Below, in pieces: positions 18 to 24,219 of a stretch of 46,127 bases of DNA. The translations under genes and the position numbers were made by a program. The notes beneath the pieces are model-generated. The model ran no database searches. It was not told the DNA's origin and worked only from the letters and a program-made list of their open reading frames with translations. Numbering within the stretch: position 1 is the stretch's first letter; every line of letters starts with the position of its first letter. This DNA is from Bradymonadales bacterium (GTDB lineage Bacteria; Bdellovibrionota; UBA2394): positions 1 through 46,127 of the forward strand of contig REDG01000028.1 of the NCBI GenBank assembly GCA_007693605.1, in the 5' to 3' direction.

Positions 18-3000
18 CTAAGTGTTACCCCCTCCAGTCAAACGCCCGCAGTCCACATGGCTTAGCTCTGAACTCGGCAAGCCTTGGGCATCAGCATCAA
101 TCAGCTGTTGTACGCTAGGATCGGTCCAAATCAATGTGATGATTGGACTGCCACCAGATGCAGATACTCCTTGCCTTGCGGCCGATAAAACTTCGTCTAA
201 AGTGGGCTGTGGTCGGTCTCTAATCTCAGCACTCATAACTGGAGAACCGTCGATCGATTTCATCCTAAATCGAATCCACAAGCCATCTCTTTGATACTCA
301 AGAGTTCTGTGCCCACTAGAGCTCTGCCCAACCTTCCAGTGCCTCTCAACAAGACTTGACTCTGCAAGAGCGAGGGAAACATTGTCGCTATAGAGATCGA
401 TGGTCCTCCTTACCGAATCAGCAATGTCTGTAAGAGTTTCAGCAGAGAGTTGGAAGTGATAGATCGCATCTTCATAAAGTCTATTTGAATCTTCACTACC
501 GCTTGTTTCAGCAAACTGAATCTGTTTGAGGGCCCTGACAAGGTCATGTGAATAGGTTGAGAGCTCACTTAAACCAAGGCTGTCATAGGTATGCGACTCC
601 CATCCCAATGGGTCCGACATTCTCGCATTCAAGGTTTGATCTGATCGATCGGTTCCTAAACGAAAATCGTGAGCAAGAGCTATGTGTTGGAACTCATGCT
701 CAACCATCAAATCAATCCGACCTGTTTGAAAGCTCTGATGTGATATGTAAAGTGTCTCTCCATTGGTAGCTGCTGCAACCGCTGCTAGCATAAACGGGGA
801 ATAAACAAGTCGACCGTCGTAGCGATCTTGCAGCAAGCGAGCCAAGCCTCCAAGTTGGGTGTGTGAAGGAAGAATAATAACCTCGAAATCACCCTCTGTT
901 TCTTGAATCTCATATTGCTCGGCACTAAGCTCCAATCTCTTTTTTGTGACTTCTTGCATCGCCCACTTCAAATACTTGCTGGCTGCAGGGTCAGTAAGAT
1001 TGATGGCGTCTAGTTGATCAACAAGATTCGAATGTAAACGAGTTATATTACTCTCGAATGTAGACAATGACGCCGTGCCGATCCTTGAAACGATCGCCGC
1101 TTCAAAAATGTAACGATTCGTCGCGTCTAGTCTGAATGGGAAAGAGTTTTCGCCCGGTGATGAGCTGTCGCCCGTCAAGCTCAAAAATTTCTCTATTGCA
1201 CTTTCCACATTTGATCGCCCGTACATTACCACTAGAGCCTCAAAGATCTCTCTGTGTTGAGGGCTCTCATCTCCCGCAATGCCTTGATCTAAAACAAAGC
1301 GTGACAATGAGAGTGCTTGCTCTCGACTCAGTCCCGCATTTTCATAGCCTTCCATAAGAATTCTTGATTTGCGAATATTCTGCCCACGCGGGTAGGTACC
1401 ATCCCAATTCTGTCTTCCCCTTCCCTGCACATGAGCTTGCAGGGTCGTTTTCAGCACAAGTCGCAACTGATCTTCAGTCAGTTTGATGCCTGATTCTGCC
1501 ACGAATCGCTCGACACGAAGCAGAGAATCGGCTTCTGTCTTTCTTTGTTCGGGGCTTACAGCAAGATCGGGATGATCTTGATAAAATGTCTTTACTGTGT
1601 TTTCTGCTCTTGCCTGAGACTTGAGTCGAGCCATGACCGGGCCTAAAGAAGGATCTGTGACATCATAGACGCCAACAGCAAACTGAATCGCCAAACCGAT
1701 CAGCTCTTGAGTGTCCATCTCTTCGCCAGATGACAATCTCGAAAAGGCCGAAGAAAGCTCTGCTAAAGTCTCCAGAATATCCTGCTGAGCCTGAGCAATA
1801 TTGATTGATCTTGCGACATTTCGAGCAGTCGTCGCCGAGTGCCCACTTCTCATGATTCGAGCACTCATCACAGTTGTGGTGCCCATAAACAACATGCTGC
1901 CTGCAGCGCCTCGAACTGTATTCTCTGCTAGGCGTTCCCAATTGAAGTCTTCATCGGTAGTTCTCAGTTCTACTGCCACTCCACCCGCAAGTGACATTCC
2001 CCCAGCAACCCGCAGCGAGCGACTCGCCATGGCTACACGCGACATGGCACTTGCACCGCCGGTTTTAGCCATGATTGCCAGACTTAAAGCGCCAAGCCCA
2101 AGATCAAAAGCGCCCTCGGTGTAACGAGCAAACCCACCAGCACGCTTGTGAGCTGAGTATTCGATATCGCTTAGCCCCATGAGTCTTCGCTGAGTTTCCG
2201 AGAATGCTGCCGCAGGCACCTCGAGCGCCAGATTCAGCACCTCACCCACCGGGTTAAGTGGATTGCTCCAAAGGGCCAGCCTCGGCAGGGACGCGGAGGC
2301 CATGTCATCTGTTGAGCCGTAAATGGAGCTGTAATGCGGCTGATCTAACTGTGACGCCAGAAACCCTCGAAGGGGACTGACTCGATTGAGAACTCCAGAA
2401 ATCGTCCCTTCATTGGCAGCGCGCTGATTCGCTCGGATGAATTGAACACCAACATCTGATCCGGCCTCCCAACCTCCACCAAATGCAGCTCCTACCACTC
2501 CCCCACCATAGTACAGAGCATTGCCCACGGTGAGATTCGCTAGACTCTCAATGAGAGCTTCTTCAGATCTCAAAATGGTACTGACAGCGCGCTGCCAAAA
2601 GGAAGGCGGCTCGACATCGGGTGCGAGAGCTTTCTCTAACTCTACCCGCTGTTCGGTGCCTAAACTTGCAAGTCGACTCCCCCCAAGCAAGTCCAGAAAT
2701 TGCCATGCTTCTTTGCTCTCTAACATCCCATGGTCTTTGAACAATTCAATAAGACTTTGATAGCCTCGCCTCTCCTGCAAAGACCGAGTGCCTCGCCCGC
2801 TCATCCCCATACTACCCGTGTTGCCAACCCCCACTCGCCGAGAGGCATCTTGGAGACCACGAGCACGATCTCTTTGGTAGGCTTCAACAGCCTCGATCGC
2901 TCTTCCGATAGCCGCCATCCACTCATCGTTTGTCGCTCGGGTGGGCCGACTAGACATCTTTCTCACCAATTCAACAAGCAAGTCTTCGTGCCCGTGATCG

Positions 3001-4190
3001 AAATCAAAAGCTTCAAAGACAGTTCTTAGCCGTGCCTCCAAATTTTCGCGTTCTTGCTCGCCACGATGATCTCCCCCCTTCTGTCTCACCTCTCTCAAGG
3101 GTTCATAAAATTTATCTAGATCCACATGCTCTGGAAAGTCCCTTGCCAAGACCTCCAAGCGTTGATCGAGTCTTGAGATCTCATCCGAATATTTAGAGGC
3201 CTTGGCTCGGTCAGCCGGGTTAGGAGCGGCCCTTATCCAACCAAGTGCGTATCTTGCTGCATAGGACTCCTGAAAAATCTCTTTCAATTCCATCGCCACG
3301 AGAGTCGCTTCCAGCTCATCGGCATCGAAGTAGTCGTGTAATTCGCTTCTCTCGAAGCGATCGCGCGTCAACGGCTCCTTACTCAATCGCCAGCGCACCA
3401 AAGCCCTCTCTCGTTCAGCGTCGCGCCGAATTCGATCGATATTGATTCCCCCGAAGCTTGTGTTGAGCTGCTCCAGCCGATCGAAAGAATGGTCAATTCT
3501 TTGCATCACCCGAGTTCTTTCAGACTCAAGTCTCGCTCGCTCTCGTTCAGCCTCTTTCTCATCCTCTCGGTCGGTAAAACTTCGATGACGCAGACGACCA
3601 TCACTCCCCCGTTCCCATCGCAGCGCGTGCCACTCAGAGTGAAGAACTTGACTCTCGGCGGTGTCAGACAAGATCGACTCAATCAACGGTTCAGCTTGCA
3701 AATAGGCATAAAGTGCATTCAACTCGGATTCGCCAATCATTCCGCCAAAGGCCGATTCTTGGAGCGCCCTTTGCAGCTCAACCGGGCTTTCGGCTCGCTG
3801 GCCCTCTAACCACTCGATTAGGCTCGCTTGCAAAAGCTCTCGAGCTTGAGTCCAAAGAGCCGCCACTTCTTCCAAACTGAATCCACGCTGAATCCAATAA
3901 GAAAAGTGTTGGTAGACCCTTTCGTCTTCAATTGGACCGTCAAAGAAGGCTTGACCTTGCCGGGCGAAGTCAATTGCCACTTCCATCGAGCTGTCAGCTA
4001 ACTCCAGATACTCTTGAAGCGCTCGAGAATTTGTTTGCTTGGAATCAACCGCCTCGGTGTCACTCCGAAAAGCAGAAAAAACAGAGAGAAGTGAATGCTT
4101 GTCGGCGGGCGGGCAAACGGCTGCGCTCCCAAGACTCGCACCAAGCGGAAGAAAAAAGGTAGCCAGTAAAAGTGCTAAAAGCTTTCTCAC
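18..4190 (-). CDS. Large secreted orphan protein (1390 aa) with C-terminal HExxH motif; polymorphic-toxin/effector-like layout
   Basis: GTG start with GGAGG RBS; signal peptide MRKLLALLLATFFLPLGASLGSA; helical/coiled N-half; Gly/Ala-rich hydrophobic middle; HEFQH at 684-698. Confidence 0.75.
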   Translation of the reverse strand: MRKLLALLLATFFLPLGASLGSAAVCPPADKHSLLSVFSAFRSDTEAVDSKQTNSRALQEYLELADSSMEVAIDFARQGQAFFDGPIEDERVYQHFSYWIQRGFSLEEVAALWTQARELLQASLIEWLEGQRAESPVELQRALQESAFGGMIGESELNALYAYLQAEPLIESILSDTAESQVLHSEWHALRWERGSDGRLRHRSFTDREDEKEAERERARLESERTRVMQRIDHSFDRLEQLNTSFGGINIDRIRRDAERERALVRWRLSKEPLTRDRFERSELHDYFDADELEATLVAMELKEIFQESYAARYALGWIRAAPNPADRAKASKYSDEISRLDQRLEVLARDFPEHVDLDKFYEPLREVRQKGGDHRGEQERENLEARLRTVFEAFDFDHGHEDLLVELVRKMSSRPTRATNDEWMAAIGRAIEAVEAYQRDRARGLQDASRRVGVGNTGSMGMSGRGTRSLQERRGYQSLIELFKDHGMLESKEAWQFLDLLGGSRLASLGTEQRVELEKALAPDVEPPSFWQRAVSTILRSEEALIESLANLTVGNALYYGGGVVGAAFGGGWEAGSDVGVQFIRANQRAANEGTISGVLNRVSPLRGFLASQLDQPHYSSIYGSTDDMASASLPRLALWSNPLNPVGEVLNLALEVPAAAFSETQRRLMGLSDIEYSAHKRAGGFARYTEGAFDLGLGALSLAIMAKTGGASAMSRVAMASRSLRVAGGMSLAGGVAVELRTTDEDFNWERLAENTVRGAAGSMLFMGTTTVMSARIMRSGHSATTARNVARSINIAQAQQDILETLAELSSAFSRLSSGEEMDTQELIGLAIQFAVGVYDVTDPSLGPVMARLKSQARAENTVKTFYQDHPDLAVSPEQRKTEADSLLRVERFVAESGIKLTEDQLRLVLKTTLQAHVQGRGRQNWDGTYPRGQNIRKSRILMEGYENAGLSREQALSLSRFVLDQGIAGDESPQHREIFEALVVMYGRSNVESAIEKFLSLTGDSSSPGENSFPFRLDATNRYIFEAAIVSRIGTASLSTFESNITRLHSNLVDQLDAINLTDPAASKYLKWAMQEVTKKRLELSAEQYEIQETEGDFEVIILPSHTQLGGLARLLQDRYDGRLVYSPFMLAAVAAATNGETLYISHQSFQTGRIDLMVEHEFQHIALAHDFRLGTDRSDQTLNARMSDPLGWESHTYDSLGLSELSTYSHDLVRALKQIQFAETSGSEDSNRLYEDAIYHFQLSAETLTDIADSVRRTIDLYSDNVSLALAESSLVERHWKVGQSSSGHRTLEYQRDGLWIRFRMKSIDGSPVMSAEIRDRPQPTLDEVLSAARQGVSASGGSPIITLIWTDPSVQQLIDADAQGLPSSELSHVDCGRLTGGGNT

Positions 4191-19023: not shown

Positions 19024-20748
19024 TTGTCCGATCAGCGATCTGAAGCGCCGCCAGAACGATTTGGCCGCTATGAAATCAAAGAAAAACTCGCTACCGGCGG
19101 GATGGCTCGAATTTATAAGGCGAGCACCTCTGGCGATCGCGTTTTTACGCTCAAAAAGATTCTTCCAGACTACTCTGACAATGAAGAATTCATTCGAATG
19201 TTTCTAGAAGAGGCCAAGATCTCTCTTTCTCTGAAACATCCCAATATTGTGCGAGTTTTGGATTTCGGCCAAATCGAAGGCTCTTACTACTTGGCGATGG
19301 AGTATGTCTTTGGAAAAGACATCGGAAGCCTGCTTCGTGCCAGTGTCGAGAACAAAATCCATCTGCCCATTGATGTGGCTTGCTATATCATTCTGCAGTG
19401 TTGCCGAGGACTGCATTATGTTCATACCCTCACCAATGCCTTTGGCGAAAATTTGGGCGTCATTCATCGAGACATTTCGCCCCCGAATATTCTCGTCAGC
19501 TACAATGGCGAGGCCAAGGTGCTCGACTTTGGCATTGCCAAGGCCGTGCGAGCCGCCAACTCCGGAAATACTCGGTCGGGAGTCTTAAAGGGAAAGTTTT
19601 GCTATATGTCGCCTGAGCAGGCTTCAGGAACGGGCTTAACGCACCAAAGTGATATTTTTAGTTTGGGAATTGTGCTTCATGAACTACTCACCTCTCGGAG
19701 TCTTTTTTATTCCAAAGACGAAATCGAAACTCTCGAGAGAGTAAGAAAGGCGGCAATTCTTCCGCCCAGTCAACACCGCAAGGGTTTGCCTCGAAAACTC
19801 GATAAGATCGTCTTGAAGGCTCTTCAGAAGAAAACGAACAAACGCTACGCAAGTTGCTCTGAGTTTGCCGATGCCTTGCAGGACTTTTTAAGCTCAAACT
19901 ACCCGAGAACCGACGCTCGCAGTGTTGCAAAGTTTCTTCGACAGATTTTTTCTGAAGATTTCTCTCAACGAATGAGAAAGGCCAAAGAAGAAAAGTGGCG
20001 GGATGTTCTTGTATCAGGGGGGGCGGACGATCAGATTCTTTTAGATCGCGACTTAAAGGCTCTGGGACATTCTCAAGCTCTGGGACCGGCCTCTACCGAG
20101 AGGCCCGTGGATTGGTTTCAGAGAGCGATCTATGATCCTCGCACCACTCGACGGCTTCGACGAACGGCTTTCTTGTCCGTTTTTGTGTTAAGCCTATTGG
20201 GAACAGGTTTTTACAGCTATTGGGACAAAGACTCTTGGCCCCATCAGACCGCTATCAGCCTTTACTCCAAATTTTCTTCTTCTGATGAGGACGAAGTCTC
20301 ATCGCTCGCTTCGACTGGCCAGAAGCCCCCTGTTCCCCGGGTTGAAGCGAAGGCCGAAGAGTCTCGCAGTGCACCCGAAAGAGGATCTCTGTCTTACTGG
20401 GTTCAAGAGGCTGATCGAGCCGAGGGGCGCAGAGATTATCGGGCGGCAAGAGAGGCTTTGCAAAGAGCTCTTCGGGTGAGTCCCTTTGATGAGCTGTTAC
20501 AGGCTCGATTTCATTATCTTGGAATTGAACTCGGTGAGATCGACCAATCCTGCCAGTGGTTAAGAGAGGCTCGAGAATTGCCGAGCGAAGAGAAGAACTT
20601 TGCCCATGCTCGCTGCCTTGAGGCTCAAGGCGAGGCCCAGCGAGCCTTAAGAGAATATCAAGAACTTCTGCGGCGATATCCTGAACACCCCAAACGAGCC
20701 GAAGTGCAACGGCGATTACAAGATCTTTCGCAACTTGTTAGTCGTTAA
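19024..20748 (+). CDS. Hanks-type Ser/Thr kinase with TM helix and C-terminal TPR-like domain
   Basis: LATGGMA, LKKI, HRDISPPN, DFGIAK, GKFCYMSPEQ; TM AFLSVFVLSLLGTGFYSYW. Confidence 0.93.
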   Translation: MSDQRSEAPPERFGRYEIKEKLATGGMARIYKASTSGDRVFTLKKILPDYSDNEEFIRMFLEEAKISLSLKHPNIVRVLDFGQIEGSYYLAMEYVFGKDIGSLLRASVENKIHLPIDVACYIILQCCRGLHYVHTLTNAFGENLGVIHRDISPPNILVSYNGEAKVLDFGIAKAVRAANSGNTRSGVLKGKFCYMSPEQASGTGLTHQSDIFSLGIVLHELLTSRSLFYSKDEIETLERVRKAAILPPSQHRKGLPRKLDKIVLKALQKKTNKRYASCSEFADALQDFLSSNYPRTDARSVAKFLRQIFSEDFSQRMRKAKEEKWRDVLVSGGADDQILLDRDLKALGHSQALGPASTERPVDWFQRAIYDPRTTRRLRRTAFLSVFVLSLLGTGFYSYWDKDSWPHQTAISLYSKFSSSDEDEVSSLASTGQKPPVPRVEAKAEESRSAPERGSLSYWVQEADRAEGRRDYRAAREALQRALRVSPFDELLQARFHYLGIELGEIDQSCQWLREARELPSEEKNFAHARCLEAQGEAQRALREYQELLRRYPEHPKRAEVQRRLQDLSQLVSR

Positions 20749-22435
20749 TGGGTGCTTTGAGATCAGTCCCATAAGCTTCCATCAGCTCTGATAGAAGTTG
20801 ATATCGCTGATCCGAATCGGGCTCCAAAAGAAAAGACTGAACGAACTGATCAAAGGCAGGTTTCGGAAGATCTGAAATGCGAAGGTTCCGACGCCAGCGC
20901 CAGCCGGCTCGAGTATTGGTGGTGATATCCTGACGGTTTCTTAGCACATCCGGATCTCGCACCCATTCCATCTCAAAGCCGGCCAGTGTCATGGTTTCGA
21001 GGGCTCCCAGCCAGTCGCCTTCGATCTTTCGATGAAGATCATCCACATCTTCCACCAAAATGGCGATCGCCCAACTGGCCCCGGCCGTTTCTGGATTTAA
21101 ATTCTGCAACAAAACATCGATCACACCGCGACCACGACGGCTCTCCACTCGGTCTAAATCTTCTTCTAGATGAGCCCCCAAATCCTCCCTCAAACGACGA
21201 GAGTAGATCTCTTCCGCTTCTGCGGTGGGCAGCATCTCGCGAAGCACTCGATGAAAGCTCTCTTGAGCCTGCAGCTCGGGATTTCGCCACGAAAGAGATT
21301 GAGCAGCTAGGCTAAAAAAACCTCGATCCACCTCAAAATTGATTCGATCAGCCCCTTCGATTCTCAAAGAGTCGTAATCATCCCGCGCAGTCTCTCGAAC
21401 TCCTTCAAAAAAGCGTCTCTCATCGGACATGACAACCAAACCCCGAACCGCAAAGGCCGCCGTAGAATACTGCCCAGTTTGAATGATGGCAGGCAAAATA
21501 AAATCTCGCCACGGGTAACGGTAGATTTCCCCTGCGACCATCGGCCCTCGAAAATTGCCGGAAAGACGGGGTGGGAAAACTCTGATCCGACCCAACCAGC
21601 CCCAAAACCCAGGCCTCAAATCATAGTTTTTGATTCGACTGCCCAAACGATGATAGCGCCAATGCTTAAGAGGATTAGGAGACCGTCCGGGCCGATAGCC
21701 TTGGCTCGCCATAAACTCCCGATAGGCAAGCTGCCGCTCTTTTGCCATTCTTTTATTGTCTCCATTGTTCAGACCAAGGATTCGTTGTTTTGCGTCAGCG
21801 GTTTGTTGACTTCGAATCCCGTTGGGGTCGGCAAGGTAGCTCATCATCGCCCCGCAGGCCCCATTTCTTGCATCGATATGCCTTTGGGCTTTCTCTTCAA
21901 TGGAATGTACAAACCGGGGGAGTTCGCTTTGAGCAAAATTGGGGCCGTACAATCTTTGCCCAGCGCGAAGAATCCGCTGTCGATTTCGGTCTTGACGGCC
22001 AGAGGCAATCTCTCGCATTCGCTCCATCGGATCTGAACCAAAGGGGCCCCGCAAGGCGGCTGAACTTCGAATGGCATCTCGCAAGGGCAGTTGGGCCTTT
22101 GCGACTCGCTTTGCCCACTCCAGAAAAATGGTAGCCGCTGAAGGAAGTGTCACCTCTAACAACCAGGGCGAGCTCATTAGATTCTGAGGCTGAAACTCTC
22201 GCCTACTGGCCTCCTCTGCCATCTCTTCATCGAAAGACTGCATGGCATGCCAAAAGCTCGCCTCCGAGATCCTTGAAAGCTCCTCTGGCCCAAGCGCCCC
22301 CCAAAGAACTTCAGAGTCCTCCAGCTCATCCCCAGAAACAGAATCAGCAAGAAATCCAGAAATAACCAAGAAGGAAAAAGCCAAAGCCAATGATCTACAG
22401 GAGCCTCCCTTAGCCCAAACCAACATCCCAAACAT
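20738..22435 (-). CDS. Hypothetical exported/membrane protein (start probably ATG 22435 or 22426)
   Basis: Long ORF; signal-like LALAFSFLVISGFLA; no recognised family. Confidence 0.65.
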   Translation of the reverse strand: MFGMLVWAKGGSCRSLALAFSFLVISGFLADSVSGDELEDSEVLWGALGPEELSRISEASFWHAMQSFDEEMAEEASRREFQPQNLMSSPWLLEVTLPSAATIFLEWAKRVAKAQLPLRDAIRSSAALRGPFGSDPMERMREIASGRQDRNRQRILRAGQRLYGPNFAQSELPRFVHSIEEKAQRHIDARNGACGAMMSYLADPNGIRSQQTADAKQRILGLNNGDNKRMAKERQLAYREFMASQGYRPGRSPNPLKHWRYHRLGSRIKNYDLRPGFWGWLGRIRVFPPRLSGNFRGPMVAGEIYRYPWRDFILPAIIQTGQYSTAAFAVRGLVVMSDERRFFEGVRETARDDYDSLRIEGADRINFEVDRGFFSLAAQSLSWRNPELQAQESFHRVLREMLPTAEAEEIYSRRLREDLGAHLEEDLDRVESRRGRGVIDVLLQNLNPETAGASWAIAILVEDVDDLHRKIEGDWLGALETMTLAGFEMEWVRDPDVLRNRQDITTNTRAGWRWRRNLRISDLPKPAFDQFVQSFLLEPDSDQRYQLLSELMEAYGTDLKAPIND

Positions 22436-22611
22436 GCTTCTGGTTAGCACGGCCGCATAGCTTGTGGAACAGAAAATCTCTAGGCCCCCAAGCCCTTGAA
22501 TATACAAAGAAATTGAGCCTAGAACTCAGGCAAAACGGAGGTCGTCAAACCGACGAAACTAATAGGGCAGAAAACGAACCAAGCCGCCTGTCCTCTCTCC
22601 TCATTTGATGA

Positions 22612-22636
22612 TCCCACTTCCGCTGCGGAAGTGGGA
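22612..22636. repeat. Perfect 12-bp inverted repeat
   Basis: TCCCACTTCCGC-T-GCGGAAGTGGGA. Confidence 0.85.
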
Positions 22637-22703: not shown

Positions 22704-22720
22704 TATTCAGAATACTGAAC
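22704..22720. repeat. 17-bp direct repeat, copy 1, internally palindromic
   Basis: TATTCAGAATACTGAAC, identical to 23817-23833. Confidence 0.9.
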
Positions 22721-22724
22721 GATT

Positions 22725-22744
22725 AGGCGGCACCCGGATTCGAA
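22725..22744 (-). repeat. att-like copy of the tRNA-Cys 3' end (distal)
   Basis: AGGCGGCACCCGGATTCGAA identical to 24149-24168. Confidence 0.92.
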
Positions 22745-22755
22745 TGGACCGGCAG

Positions 22756-22791
22756 TTGTCATTAAAACCATAAGGTGATACCTTATGGTTT
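22756..22791 (+). promoter_or_regulatory. sigma70-type promoter overlapped by a perfect 12-bp operator palindrome
   Basis: TTGTCA-N17-TACCTT with TG extension; AAACCATAAGGT-GAT-ACCTTATGGTTT (22765-22791) abuts the GTG. Confidence 0.75.
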
Positions 22792-23784
22792 GTGCTCAAT
22801 CTAGACCCTCTCACGGCTAAGAAAGACAGGCTCGATCAACTACGGCCATTTCCATTCGAGGCGCTTCGCTCTCTCGAGGCGTGGTTTCGAGTGGAGCTGA
22901 CCTATACCAGCAATGCCCTCGAAGGAAACACTCTCAACCGGAGAGAGACGGCTCTCGTTCTAGAGAAGGGCCTGACAGTCGGCGGGAAGTCTTTGGTGGA
23001 ACATCTTGAAGCCAAGAATCATGCTGCTGCACTCGACTGGCTTCACTCGCAACTAAAGCCACAGCCTCACCAGATAGGAATCCAAGATGTTTTGAAGATT
23101 CATGAGATGATTCTAAAAGGAATTGAGGATCAGCACGCCGGTCGCTTTCGCTCAGTGCCGGTGAGAATTTCTGGCTCTACCGTGGTCTTACCCAACCCTC
23201 AGAAAGTTCCTGAGCTTATGAATGGTTTTATCTCTTGGCTGAAAGGCTCAAAGAAGCTTCATCCAGTTGAGCTGGCGTCGGAGGCTCATTACCGTTTGGT
23301 GAGTATCCACCCCTTTGTGGATGGCAATGGTAGAACGGCAAGGCTTCTCATGAATCTGATTTTGATGAGGGGAGGCTATCCTCCCGCCATCATTCGAAAA
23401 CGCGATCGATTGGCTTATCTGGTTGCGCTAGAAAAGGCTCAGCTTGGTGGCTCGAAGGATGACTATGAGAGGCTCATCGGCAAGTCGGTAAACCGCTCTT
23501 TGGATATCTATCTACAGACTCTCGCTGATGATCGGAAAGCTCAAGTTGAACTCGATCAAGAGCCTCTGATGAAGATTGGCGAGCTTGCAAAGAAGGCGGG
23601 CGAGACCCTACCCACCATTCGACATTGGACAAAGGAGGCTTTACTGGAAGTCGCAGAAGTAACAACGGCTGGTTACCAAATGTATGCGCCAGAGATGCTA
23701 GAGAGAGTGAAAACAATTCAAAAATTGAAAGAAAAACGACTTACACTGAAAGAAATCAAGAGAGCTCTACACGAACAGGAGTAG
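22792..23784 (+). CDS. Class II Fic-domain AMPylase fused to a C-terminal MerR-type HTH
   Basis: HPFVDGNGRTAR; N-terminal inhibitory SNALEGN; MKIGELAKKAGETLPTIRHW. Confidence 0.93.
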   Translation: MLNLDPLTAKKDRLDQLRPFPFEALRSLEAWFRVELTYTSNALEGNTLNRRETALVLEKGLTVGGKSLVEHLEAKNHAAALDWLHSQLKPQPHQIGIQDVLKIHEMILKGIEDQHAGRFRSVPVRISGSTVVLPNPQKVPELMNGFISWLKGSKKLHPVELASEAHYRLVSIHPFVDGNGRTARLLMNLILMRGGYPPAIIRKRDRLAYLVALEKAQLGGSKDDYERLIGKSVNRSLDIYLQTLADDRKAQVELDQEPLMKIGELAKKAGETLPTIRHWTKEALLEVAEVTTAGYQMYAPEMLERVKTIQKLKEKRLTLKEIKRALHEQE

Positions 23785-23816
23785 ACAATGAAACCAAGCC
23801 TATGCGCCCCAGGCTC

Positions 23817-23833
23817 TATTCAGAATACTGAAC
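23817..23833. repeat. 17-bp direct repeat, copy 2
   Basis: TATTCAGAATACTGAAC. Confidence 0.9.
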
Positions 23834-23863
23834 TATGTACCTTTTTGTAGAGCCACCCCTTTG

Positions 23864-23888
23864 TTCAGGCGGCACCCGTATTCGAACC
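23864..23888 (-). repeat. att-like copy of the tRNA-Cys 3' end (proximal)
   Basis: 24/25 identical to 24146-24170. Confidence 0.92.
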
Positions 23889-24123
23889 CAGATTTGCGGT
23901 GAGCGAGTACCCGAGCGAACGAGAAGGCGAGCAGTGCGCAGCCTTCGAGAGCAAAGATGCCTATAGCACCATCTATACCTGTGAGAAGCTAAGAAGCTCA
24001 GGCCCTTAACAACGACCAGACACCCGTGACCAGATTTGCGGTGAGCGAGTACCCGAGCGAACGAGAAGGCGAGCAGTGCGCAGCCTTCGAGAGCAAAGAT
24101 GCCTATAGCACCGTCTATACCTG
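23888..24123. repeat. Two 94-bp direct repeats (23888-23981, 24030-24123) with a 48-bp spacer
   Basis: 93/94 identical; CCAGATTTGCGGTGAGCGAG...CTATACCTG. Confidence 0.95.
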
Positions 24124-24148
24124 GCTCTTCGGGTTGACGCGAATTTTC

Positions 24149-24219
24149 AGGCGGCACCCGGATTCGAACCGGGGATGAGGATTTTGCAGACCCTTGCCTT
24201 ACCACTTGGCTATGCCGCC
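24149..24219 (-). tRNA. tRNA-Cys (GCA); CCA not encoded
   Basis: GGCGGCATAGCCAAGTGGTAAGGCAAGGGTCTGCAAAATCCTCATCCCCGGTTCGAATCCGGGTGCCGCCT; cloverleaf with U73. Confidence 0.97.

Follow-up and report, generated by a model that had tools for sequence, protein, structure and literature searches.

A tRNA-Cys locus combining a Fic-MerR gene unit with a structured tRNA-linked repeat in a Bradymonadales bacterium

The window analysed here is the whole 46,127 nt stretch of contig REDG01000028.1 from a Bradymonadales bacterium (assembly GCA_007693605.1), in which a tRNA-Cys gene is followed by two displaced copies of its own 3' end, two copies of a 94-bp repeat module and a gene for a protein with Fic and MerR domains. 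The locus is likely to be a composite, made of the remains of two separate kinds of mobile DNA rather than the product of integron-like gene capture. The best reading of the Fic unit is that of an island remnant of the CIME or additive-cassette kind, to which the repeat was added later. On balance, and with a confidence only slightly above even, we favour a two-layer relic, in which an integrase-borne Fic-MerR gene lost its integrase and arm sites by deletion and two copies of the module then arrived. The locus adds one lineage to the known pattern of integrase-less cassettes stacked at tRNA genes, and it offers a strongly covarying tRNA-linked repeat, a class to which the available text of PMC8144298 assigns no known function or origin.

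Anatomy of the tRNA-Cys locus

Table 1. Features of the tRNA-Cys locus (positions are those of the window)
Feature	Position	Strand	Remarks
tRNA-Cys(GCA)	24149-24219	-	intact, no encoded CCA
Locus-specific leader, between tRNA end and first module	24124-24148	-	from sequence
Structured tRNA-linked module, copy 1 (94 bp)	24030-24123	-	repeat comparison, covariation
Spacer, 32 bp	23998-24029	-	unique in assembly; contains a 7-mer discussed in the text
Leader of the type seen at the tRNA-Ser and tRNA-Trp modules of the same genome	23982-23997	-	
Structured tRNA-linked module, copy 2 (94 bp)	23888-23981	-	
Proximal tRNA-Cys 3' copy (24/25)	23864-23888	-	from T-stem to 3 bases beyond tRNA end
43-bp stretch	23812-23854	.	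7-bp inverted ends resembling this genome's ISL3 end
20-bp palindromic box	23817-23836		inside the 43-bp stretch
Gene for Fic protein with C-terminal MerR HTH, 330 aa	22792-23784	+	transcribed towards the tRNA
Inferred promoter	22756-22791	+	motif kept upstream of homologues; consensus scan negative
27-bp palindromic operator (predicted)	22765-22791	+	within promoter region
Distal tRNA-Cys 3' copy (20/20)	22725-22744	-	T-loop to discriminator, att-like
20-bp palindromic box, second copy	22704-22723	.	just outside distal tRNA-Cys copy

The sequence-only reading had reported both displaced copies of the tRNA-Cys 3' end, and these were confirmed: a 20-mer from the tRNA end, searched with up to 2 mismatches, gave 3 matches in the window and none in 100 shuffles. 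The copies lie 282 and 1424 bp behind the gene, with spacings of 282 and 1142 bp between successive tRNA-Cys 3' ends, and both are trailed by the 20-bp box, which a plain att crossover does not explain. The two 94-bp repeats, which differ at 1 base and are offset by 142 bp, and the single-gene unit of 1142 bp likewise stood as described. The 282-bp stretch had been taken for one non-coding unit; it does hold both repeats, but it consists of two units, each of about 141 bp, of a genome-wide repeat and is not one cassette. Within the spacer, the motif CACCCGT (24021-24027) had been suggested to be a decayed remnant of tRNA-Cys. The motif is present, but the start of the spacer resembles the variable loop and T-stem of the tRNA-Thr(CGT) of relatives and its end resembles tRNA-Trp, and the spacer fits either of these tRNAs about as well as it fits tRNA-Cys. 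In an Rfam scan only the tRNA scored, the match to c4-a1b1 (E 0.8) being far under its gathering score.

The claim that the window carries no integrase or transposase agrees with genome-wide searches for four kinds of enzyme (tyrosine recombinase, Y1 transposase, serine recombinase and ISL3), which gave no match on this contig, and with a Pfam scan of 26 of the 78 window ORFs, which found no mobility gene. Two window ORFs, at 20738-22507 (589 aa) and 18-4190 (1390 aa), have no Pfam match; the former occupies the variable slot next to the Fic unit and has no relative in the surveyed sequences. A 25-bp palindrome is present at 22612-22636, and related copies occur on several contigs, some beside tRNA genes.

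The tRNA-linked module

A search of the genome with the 94-bp module (nhmmer) gave 24 matches, 21 of them at E<0.01, and the module was found behind nine tRNA genes: Ser(GGA), Ser(GCT), Arg(ACG), Arg(TCT), Gly(GCC), Asn, Trp, Pro(TGG) and Cys. The gene-less and gene-bearing units at tRNA-Cys, previously proposed to form one cassette system, are thus to be separated. Among 19 matches to the core motif, 13 run directly into a long copy of the tRNA 3' end and one looks like chance. The tRNA copy after the module begins at or beside GGT in the T-stem or variable loop, and the unit, mostly 142–143 bp in size, closes with the 3' end of the host tRNA; the proximal tRNA-Cys copy is joined to its module in the same way as at other tRNAs. 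Module copies from different tRNAs reach 97% identity, so the tRNA fragment probably arises anew at each site instead of travelling with the module. Homologues are present at the tRNA-Cys of relative G008, at the tRNA-Gly of relative G011 and on metagenome contigs at tRNA-Met and tRNA-Ser, and the length of tRNA trailer duplicated by the units varies (13 bases in G008, about 35 at metagenome locus L152). Scanning metagenomes for the module pattern returned 25 matches, mostly chance, the real relatives among the matches listed being L151, L152, L154, L155 and L158; scans of collections of genome contigs and viral contigs gave 0 matches. No description of the module, or of its mixture with cargo genes, was found in open-access main texts.

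Comparison of 12 aligned module copies, 8 of which come from one genome and so are not independent, revealed a three-helix structure in which 95% of cells are paired and 13 of 19 pairs have changed on both sides. This level was reached by none of 500 shuffles, and slid controls showed 26–41% paired. Both strands fold, the strand opposite the tRNA modestly better (-16.5 versus -14.4 kcal/mol). Folding of single 94-mers was no better than that of shuffles (z -0.37 and -0.04), the structure being visible only by covariation. The second copy at tRNA-Cys carries a Ser/Trp-type leader after the unique spacer, which makes it likely that this copy was imported from another tRNA locus, by insertion or recombination, rather than duplicated locally.

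With near-identical copies at nine tRNA ends, the module lends itself well to a search for the enzyme behind such repeats. Dispersed hairpins thought to be spread by a single-strand enzyme acting in trans are found with the Ssn GIY-YIG nucleases and their NTS/SRM hairpins, as described in the available text of PMC11893778, and with REP/RAYT, and the module is like both. Unlike the Ssn/SRM pairing, no small GIY-YIG gene was found in the 14 family genomes, where all 22 PF01541 matches lie in open frames of at least 217 aa, and that portion of PMC11893778 makes no mention of tRNA. A local GIY-YIG profile, built from large proteins with one seed mistranslated, also found no small partner. One REP-associated tyrosine transposase (RAYT) is encoded in the genome, near tRNA-Gln, but its own flanking repeats are unlike the 94-bp module, and this REP-associated Y1 transposase is a weak and rather doubtful candidate for the enzyme of the module.

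Several other repeats were noted at tRNA genes of this genome (G000). The RAYT gene (L354, G000:C78:26479-27135) has inverted repeats on both sides and lies next to another Fic gene, 1.4 kb behind tRNA-Gln; its flanking repeat also occurs behind several tRNAs. There are at least two further tRNA-linked repeat families (G000:C18, loci L017 and L026; G000:C46, locus L023; G000:C42 near 47700). One, of about 150 bp, lies behind tRNA-Ser, Gly, Arg, Leu, Glu and His, and another behind tRNA-Arg(ACG) and tRNA-Phe, followed by a 3' copy. Amid repeat modules, a 110-aa gene (G000:C18:21928-22512) is found between two short tRNA-Arg(ACG) acceptor copies, 575 bp apart. An ISL3 element (L355, G000:C53:47300-50790) is inserted exactly at the 3' end of tRNA-Leu(TAG) with an 8-bp duplication, and the sequence of its right end is also found behind tRNA-Leu(GAG), Ser(TGA), Pro, Met and Gln here and behind tRNA-Pro in relative G012, suggesting that ISL3 may prefer tRNA trailers.

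The Fic-MerR unit and gene-bearing units at other tRNAs

By Pfam, the single gene of the 1142-bp unit specifies a Fic domain and a MerR HTH. The catalytic motif of the Fic protein is intact, and an N-terminal motif of inhibitory type aligns with that of FICD. The product is predicted to be a self-regulated, self-inhibited AMP transferase, that is, TA-like cargo. Of 8000 scored candidates, 7240 are relatives, and identity to the best 119 other proteins listed, from several phyla, is 64–76%. None of the 13 family genomes has a match at E<=1e-60, against 7 among 300 genomes of the phylum. Judged from these comparisons and from its patchy spread across phyla the gene appears to be an import, acquired horizontally; the GC content of the unit is not atypical (0.49 versus 0.49). 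A consensus scan of the upstream region returned 0 promoters, and the earlier claim that the gene has a promoter of its own stands only as read from a promoter-operator motif seen upstream of all 19 homologues inspected by eye. The preservation of this motif indicates that the gene travels as a self-contained unit, and the gene is probably leaderless and autoregulated. PADLOC matches of the Fic domain (PDC-S04, SoFic) are at the level of the domain only and were not accepted as evidence of a defence function.

Among 87 other Fic-MerR loci, a tRNA or tmRNA is present in the fetched flank at 9, boundaries formed by tRNA copies were found at none, and a tyrosine recombinase is nearby at 4, a count that argues against arrival on an integrase-bearing element. 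These figures point to general mobile cargo rather than a dedicated tRNA cassette, and the Fic unit taken alone is ordinary mobile cargo. Only 11 bp separate the att-like copy from the promoter, so that the unit is very tight, as in a purpose-built cassette, and this too counts against a deletion origin. Apart from the tRNA itself, nothing in 13 relatives matches the left end of the unit.

As the earlier reading had suggested, the tRNA-Cys locus was compared across relatives, and the content of the slot behind the gene differs between them. Of the 12 relatives with a match, 11 were read, most over about 1.5 kb of flank and five over as much as 8 kb. Exact 3' copies accompanied by short modules are present in 2 and an interrupted copy at a contig end in 1; the other 8 have no copy in the flank read. 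Within the flank read, the 11 relatives carry neither the Fic gene at tRNA-Cys nor an integrase-bearing parent element, the latter counting against descent by deletion. The slot between a kinase gene and tRNA-Cys, compared between different genera, measures 1.8 kb in G012, 5.8 kb in G008 and 3.4 kb at the present locus, and its genes differ. At the tRNA-Cys genes of G005, G006 and G007 (L004, L005, L012), inverted acceptor or T-arm copies lie 30–60 bp behind the gene.

A scan of all tRNAs for the same pattern, also proposed earlier, took in 249 tRNAs, from this genome and from six relatives, and followed each for as much as 8 kb downstream; in two relatives part of the tRNAs were covered (27 of 40 in G011, 28 of 34 in G007). 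A 3' copy was found at 32 tRNAs, compared with 1 of 1245 shuffled probes. Units of 400 bp or less occur at 23 of these, and 11 have longer units, 14 long units in all. A tyrosine recombinase is present in 3 of the long units, truncated in two of them, and absent from 11, among which there is one serine-recombinase domain and one ISL3. Units of 1.1–1.8 kb with a single gene or one TA pair lie at tRNA-Cys here, tRNA-Thr and tRNA-Leu of G008, tRNA-Thr of G011 and tRNA-Gln of G007. At the last, three integrase-less units of 2746, 1156 and 1337 bp stand in tandem, and the cargo of the stack includes an HTH/nucleotidyltransferase pair. The idea of minimal cassettes inserted serially holds in part: integrase-less gene units do recur, but the view that the empty units and the gene-bearing ones form one system is not supported. 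At nine further tRNAs an integrase or a fragment of one lies within 1 kb and no copy was met in 8 kb; a survey limited to 8 kb is thus biased towards short units. Truncated integrases (230–241 aa in three cases in G012, 105 aa in G011, 156 aa in G008 and 84 aa in this genome), together with arm repeats that lack an integrase at tRNA-Val of this genome, indicate that islands of the family decay by deletion. At locus L193 (G008:C3:11700-20500), tRNA-Leu(TAA) and a copy of its 3' half that a hairpin interrupts enclose a single gene, whose 434-aa product has DUF2007 and matches SecY in part.

Integrases can cross over within the T-loop of a tRNA gene. The distal tRNA-Cys copy starts exactly at the 7-base T-loop and ends at the discriminator base, and a T-loop boundary is also seen at the integrase-bearing tRNA-Met island of relative G003. 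Tandem arm-type repeats of 9 bp are found at the proximal end of 7 of 11 integrase-linked tRNAs inspected, whereas the Fic unit lacks them, as do 4 of 5 inspected units without an integrase. In the small islands of the family the integrase is tRNA-proximal, and in 2 of 3 of them TA-like cargo begins at the distal att and is oriented towards the tRNA, an arrangement shared by the Fic gene. A common end sequence in two of the G007 units creates an inverted repeat about the T-loop; this hints that a core site has been maintained, and it counts against the deletion model. When viral sequences were scanned for the tRNA-Cys end, 12 loci were found, most of them clusters of host tRNAs next to prophage integrases; in one of the 12 an integrase adjoins tRNA-Cys, and none has the box. 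In this genome (90% complete) the intact tyrosine recombinases are XerD, an XerC-like protein and island integrases at tRNA-Met and tRNA-Asn, so that the co-occurring stand-alone recombinase called for by the sequence-only reading did not emerge beyond XerD and the XerC-like protein.

Known systems and the origin of the locus

Integrons comprise the integrase IntI, an attI site and cassettes with attC sites that follow a consensus. The locus resembles an integron in two respects, the compactness of its single-gene unit and the presence of a covarying hairpin repeat within an array, and had been described as integron-like. However, the integron integrase model TIGR02249 had 0 matches above cut-off in the 90% complete genome, and no attC-type core pair was seen by eye on the module alignment, where GTT follows the module and no inverse core opens it. 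The gene moreover has its own inferred promoter, and the boundaries are tRNA copies and not hairpins, so the label was given up.

Closer parallels are found elsewhere. In the available parts of two accounts (PMC7563491, PMC5704250), CIMEs measure 1.2–13 kb and microCIMEs 130–220 bp, with tandem accretion at att sites. The arrangement here is like that described, with an integrase-less cargo unit between att-like repeats, beside gene-less short units, stacked at one target; the cargo unit is bounded by att-like direct repeats of the target gene and has no integration or transfer genes inside. Unlike the CIMEs of those parts, it involves no conjugation genes, and descent from an ICE or IME is conjectural. 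The short units also differ from the microCIMEs presented there, as they are one structured module common to nine tRNAs, a misfit with att-to-att deletion scars of one element, and are proximal and not distal in the array. Additive islands and cassettes with tRNA direct repeats are described in the accessible text of PMC6917214, for fGI1 of Ca. Actinomarinales (PMC7771536) and for Prochlorococcus islands (10.1101/2020.12.28.424599). As in those descriptions, there are small cassettes at tRNA genes with a 16–20-bp tRNA repeat, serial insertion and remnants of fragmented integrases, and at tRNA-Cys acquired cargo lies at the tRNA 3' end with a 20-bp direct repeat. In contrast to them, the lineage is different, the cassettes are interleaved with a structured repeat, and the pattern was read from genomes of different genera and not from strains.

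For the short units, the nearest likeness is to the tRNA-linked repeats (TLRs) of E. coli (tyrT repeats or RtT), of which the available text of PMC8144298 lists 22 at ten loci, the last 18–19 bp being those of the upstream tRNA or rRNA, with no known function. As in that account, one to several short gene-less units lie directly behind a tRNA, within the TLR pattern of 1–5 per locus, each ending in the host tRNA 3' end. Compared with the figures given there, the unit is about 142 bp versus 178 and the duplication 22–32 bases versus 18–19, and the module precedes the T-stem whereas the TLR interrupts the T-loop. Sequence likeness between the module and the tyrT unit is weak, the best score, on the opposite strand and in one of six tests, being equalled by 13 of 500 shuffles.

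In the two-layer account, the Fic-MerR gene would have come on a small tyrosine-integrase element recombining in the tRNA-Cys T-loop, its integration leaving a displaced tRNA end of 20 bp (22725-22744). The tRNA-proximal part would then have been deleted along with the integrase and arm sites, so that att, promoter, gene and att remain, and the Fic unit would now be stuck, or movable only along with a later element. In the second layer, folded gene-less modules would have been inserted at the restored tRNA, the module probably moving as a folded single strand with the enzyme supplied in trans. The deletion step leaves the repeated 20-bp box and the tight fit around the gene unexplained. Two other histories were weighed. 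The gene-bearing units may instead be live minimal cassettes, excised and inserted serially at the T-loop by a trans-acting recombinase, either a visiting integrase or XerCD, for which the core site is sufficient. This we consider unlikely, even though 11 of the 14 long units lack a tyrosine recombinase, compact one-gene or one-TA-pair units recur, two units of the G007 tRNA-Gln stack have a common end motif, and the unit at tRNA-Thr of G008 occupies a site whose downstream flank matches G011 and G004. It has to contend with the shortage of recombinases in the genome (no integron integrase above cut-off and no stand-alone enzyme other than XerD and the XerC-like protein), the absence of arm sites and attC-type cores, the 0 of 87 other Fic loci bounded by tRNA copies and the membership of the gene-less units in a different repeat family. 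It is decidedly improbable, in our estimate, that the Fic gene was captured by the repeat-forming process itself, by way of a target duplication that begins at the T-loop, extends across the trailer and takes in the 20-bp box, foreign DNA being copied in place of the module. Such a process would fit the variable trailer lengths duplicated by module units, the box behind both copies here and the cargo genes found between module-bearing copies at tRNA-Ala and tRNA-Thr of G011, tRNA-Leu of G008 and tRNA-Arg(ACG) of this genome. The distal copy, however, has no preceding module and starts at the T-loop, in contrast to the GGT starts of module joints, and a 28-bp insert must be added to account for the proximal trailer.

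The possibility that the 282-bp part is a mis-joined path through the genome-wide repeat, the true locus having one or another number of modules, is given very little weight. Of the 10 contigs with the module, 8 have it no more than 200 bp from a contig end, no sample contig bridges 23909-24155 and two unique stretches there are uncovered, and the spacer looks foreign to tRNA-Cys. Against this, both ends of the 282-bp stretch are specific to tRNA-Cys and the spacer is unique in the assembly, coverage holes in sample contigs prove nothing, and one sample contig, which may be from the source sample, runs without a difference from the distal att across the gene and through the proximal copy. Joints expected of circles or empty sites were absent from the only DNA run that covers the stretch, available as contigs, which drop rare forms, and perhaps of the source sample, and from two RNA runs of unrelated samples, whose only reads stemmed from the tRNA of other organisms. 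A loose end at 24149 was considered as an empty-site joint and rejected, as it equals the distal 20-bp repeat of the long contig itself; the depths there (bins of 23.4 and 13.5) fit one 20-base piece at 13.1.

A wider reading, which we regard as a long shot, is that tRNA 3' ends in this family may be working platforms of gene capture, where a module spread in trans would regenerate T-arm and acceptor copies and single self-regulated genes or TA pairs would stack by core-site recombination without a resident integrase. If this were true, finding the enzyme of the module would also explain the long-unexplained tRNA-linked repeats. The best locus of the family for testing serial cassette capture is the tRNA-Gln(TTG) stack of G007 (L326, G007:C7:13100-21900).
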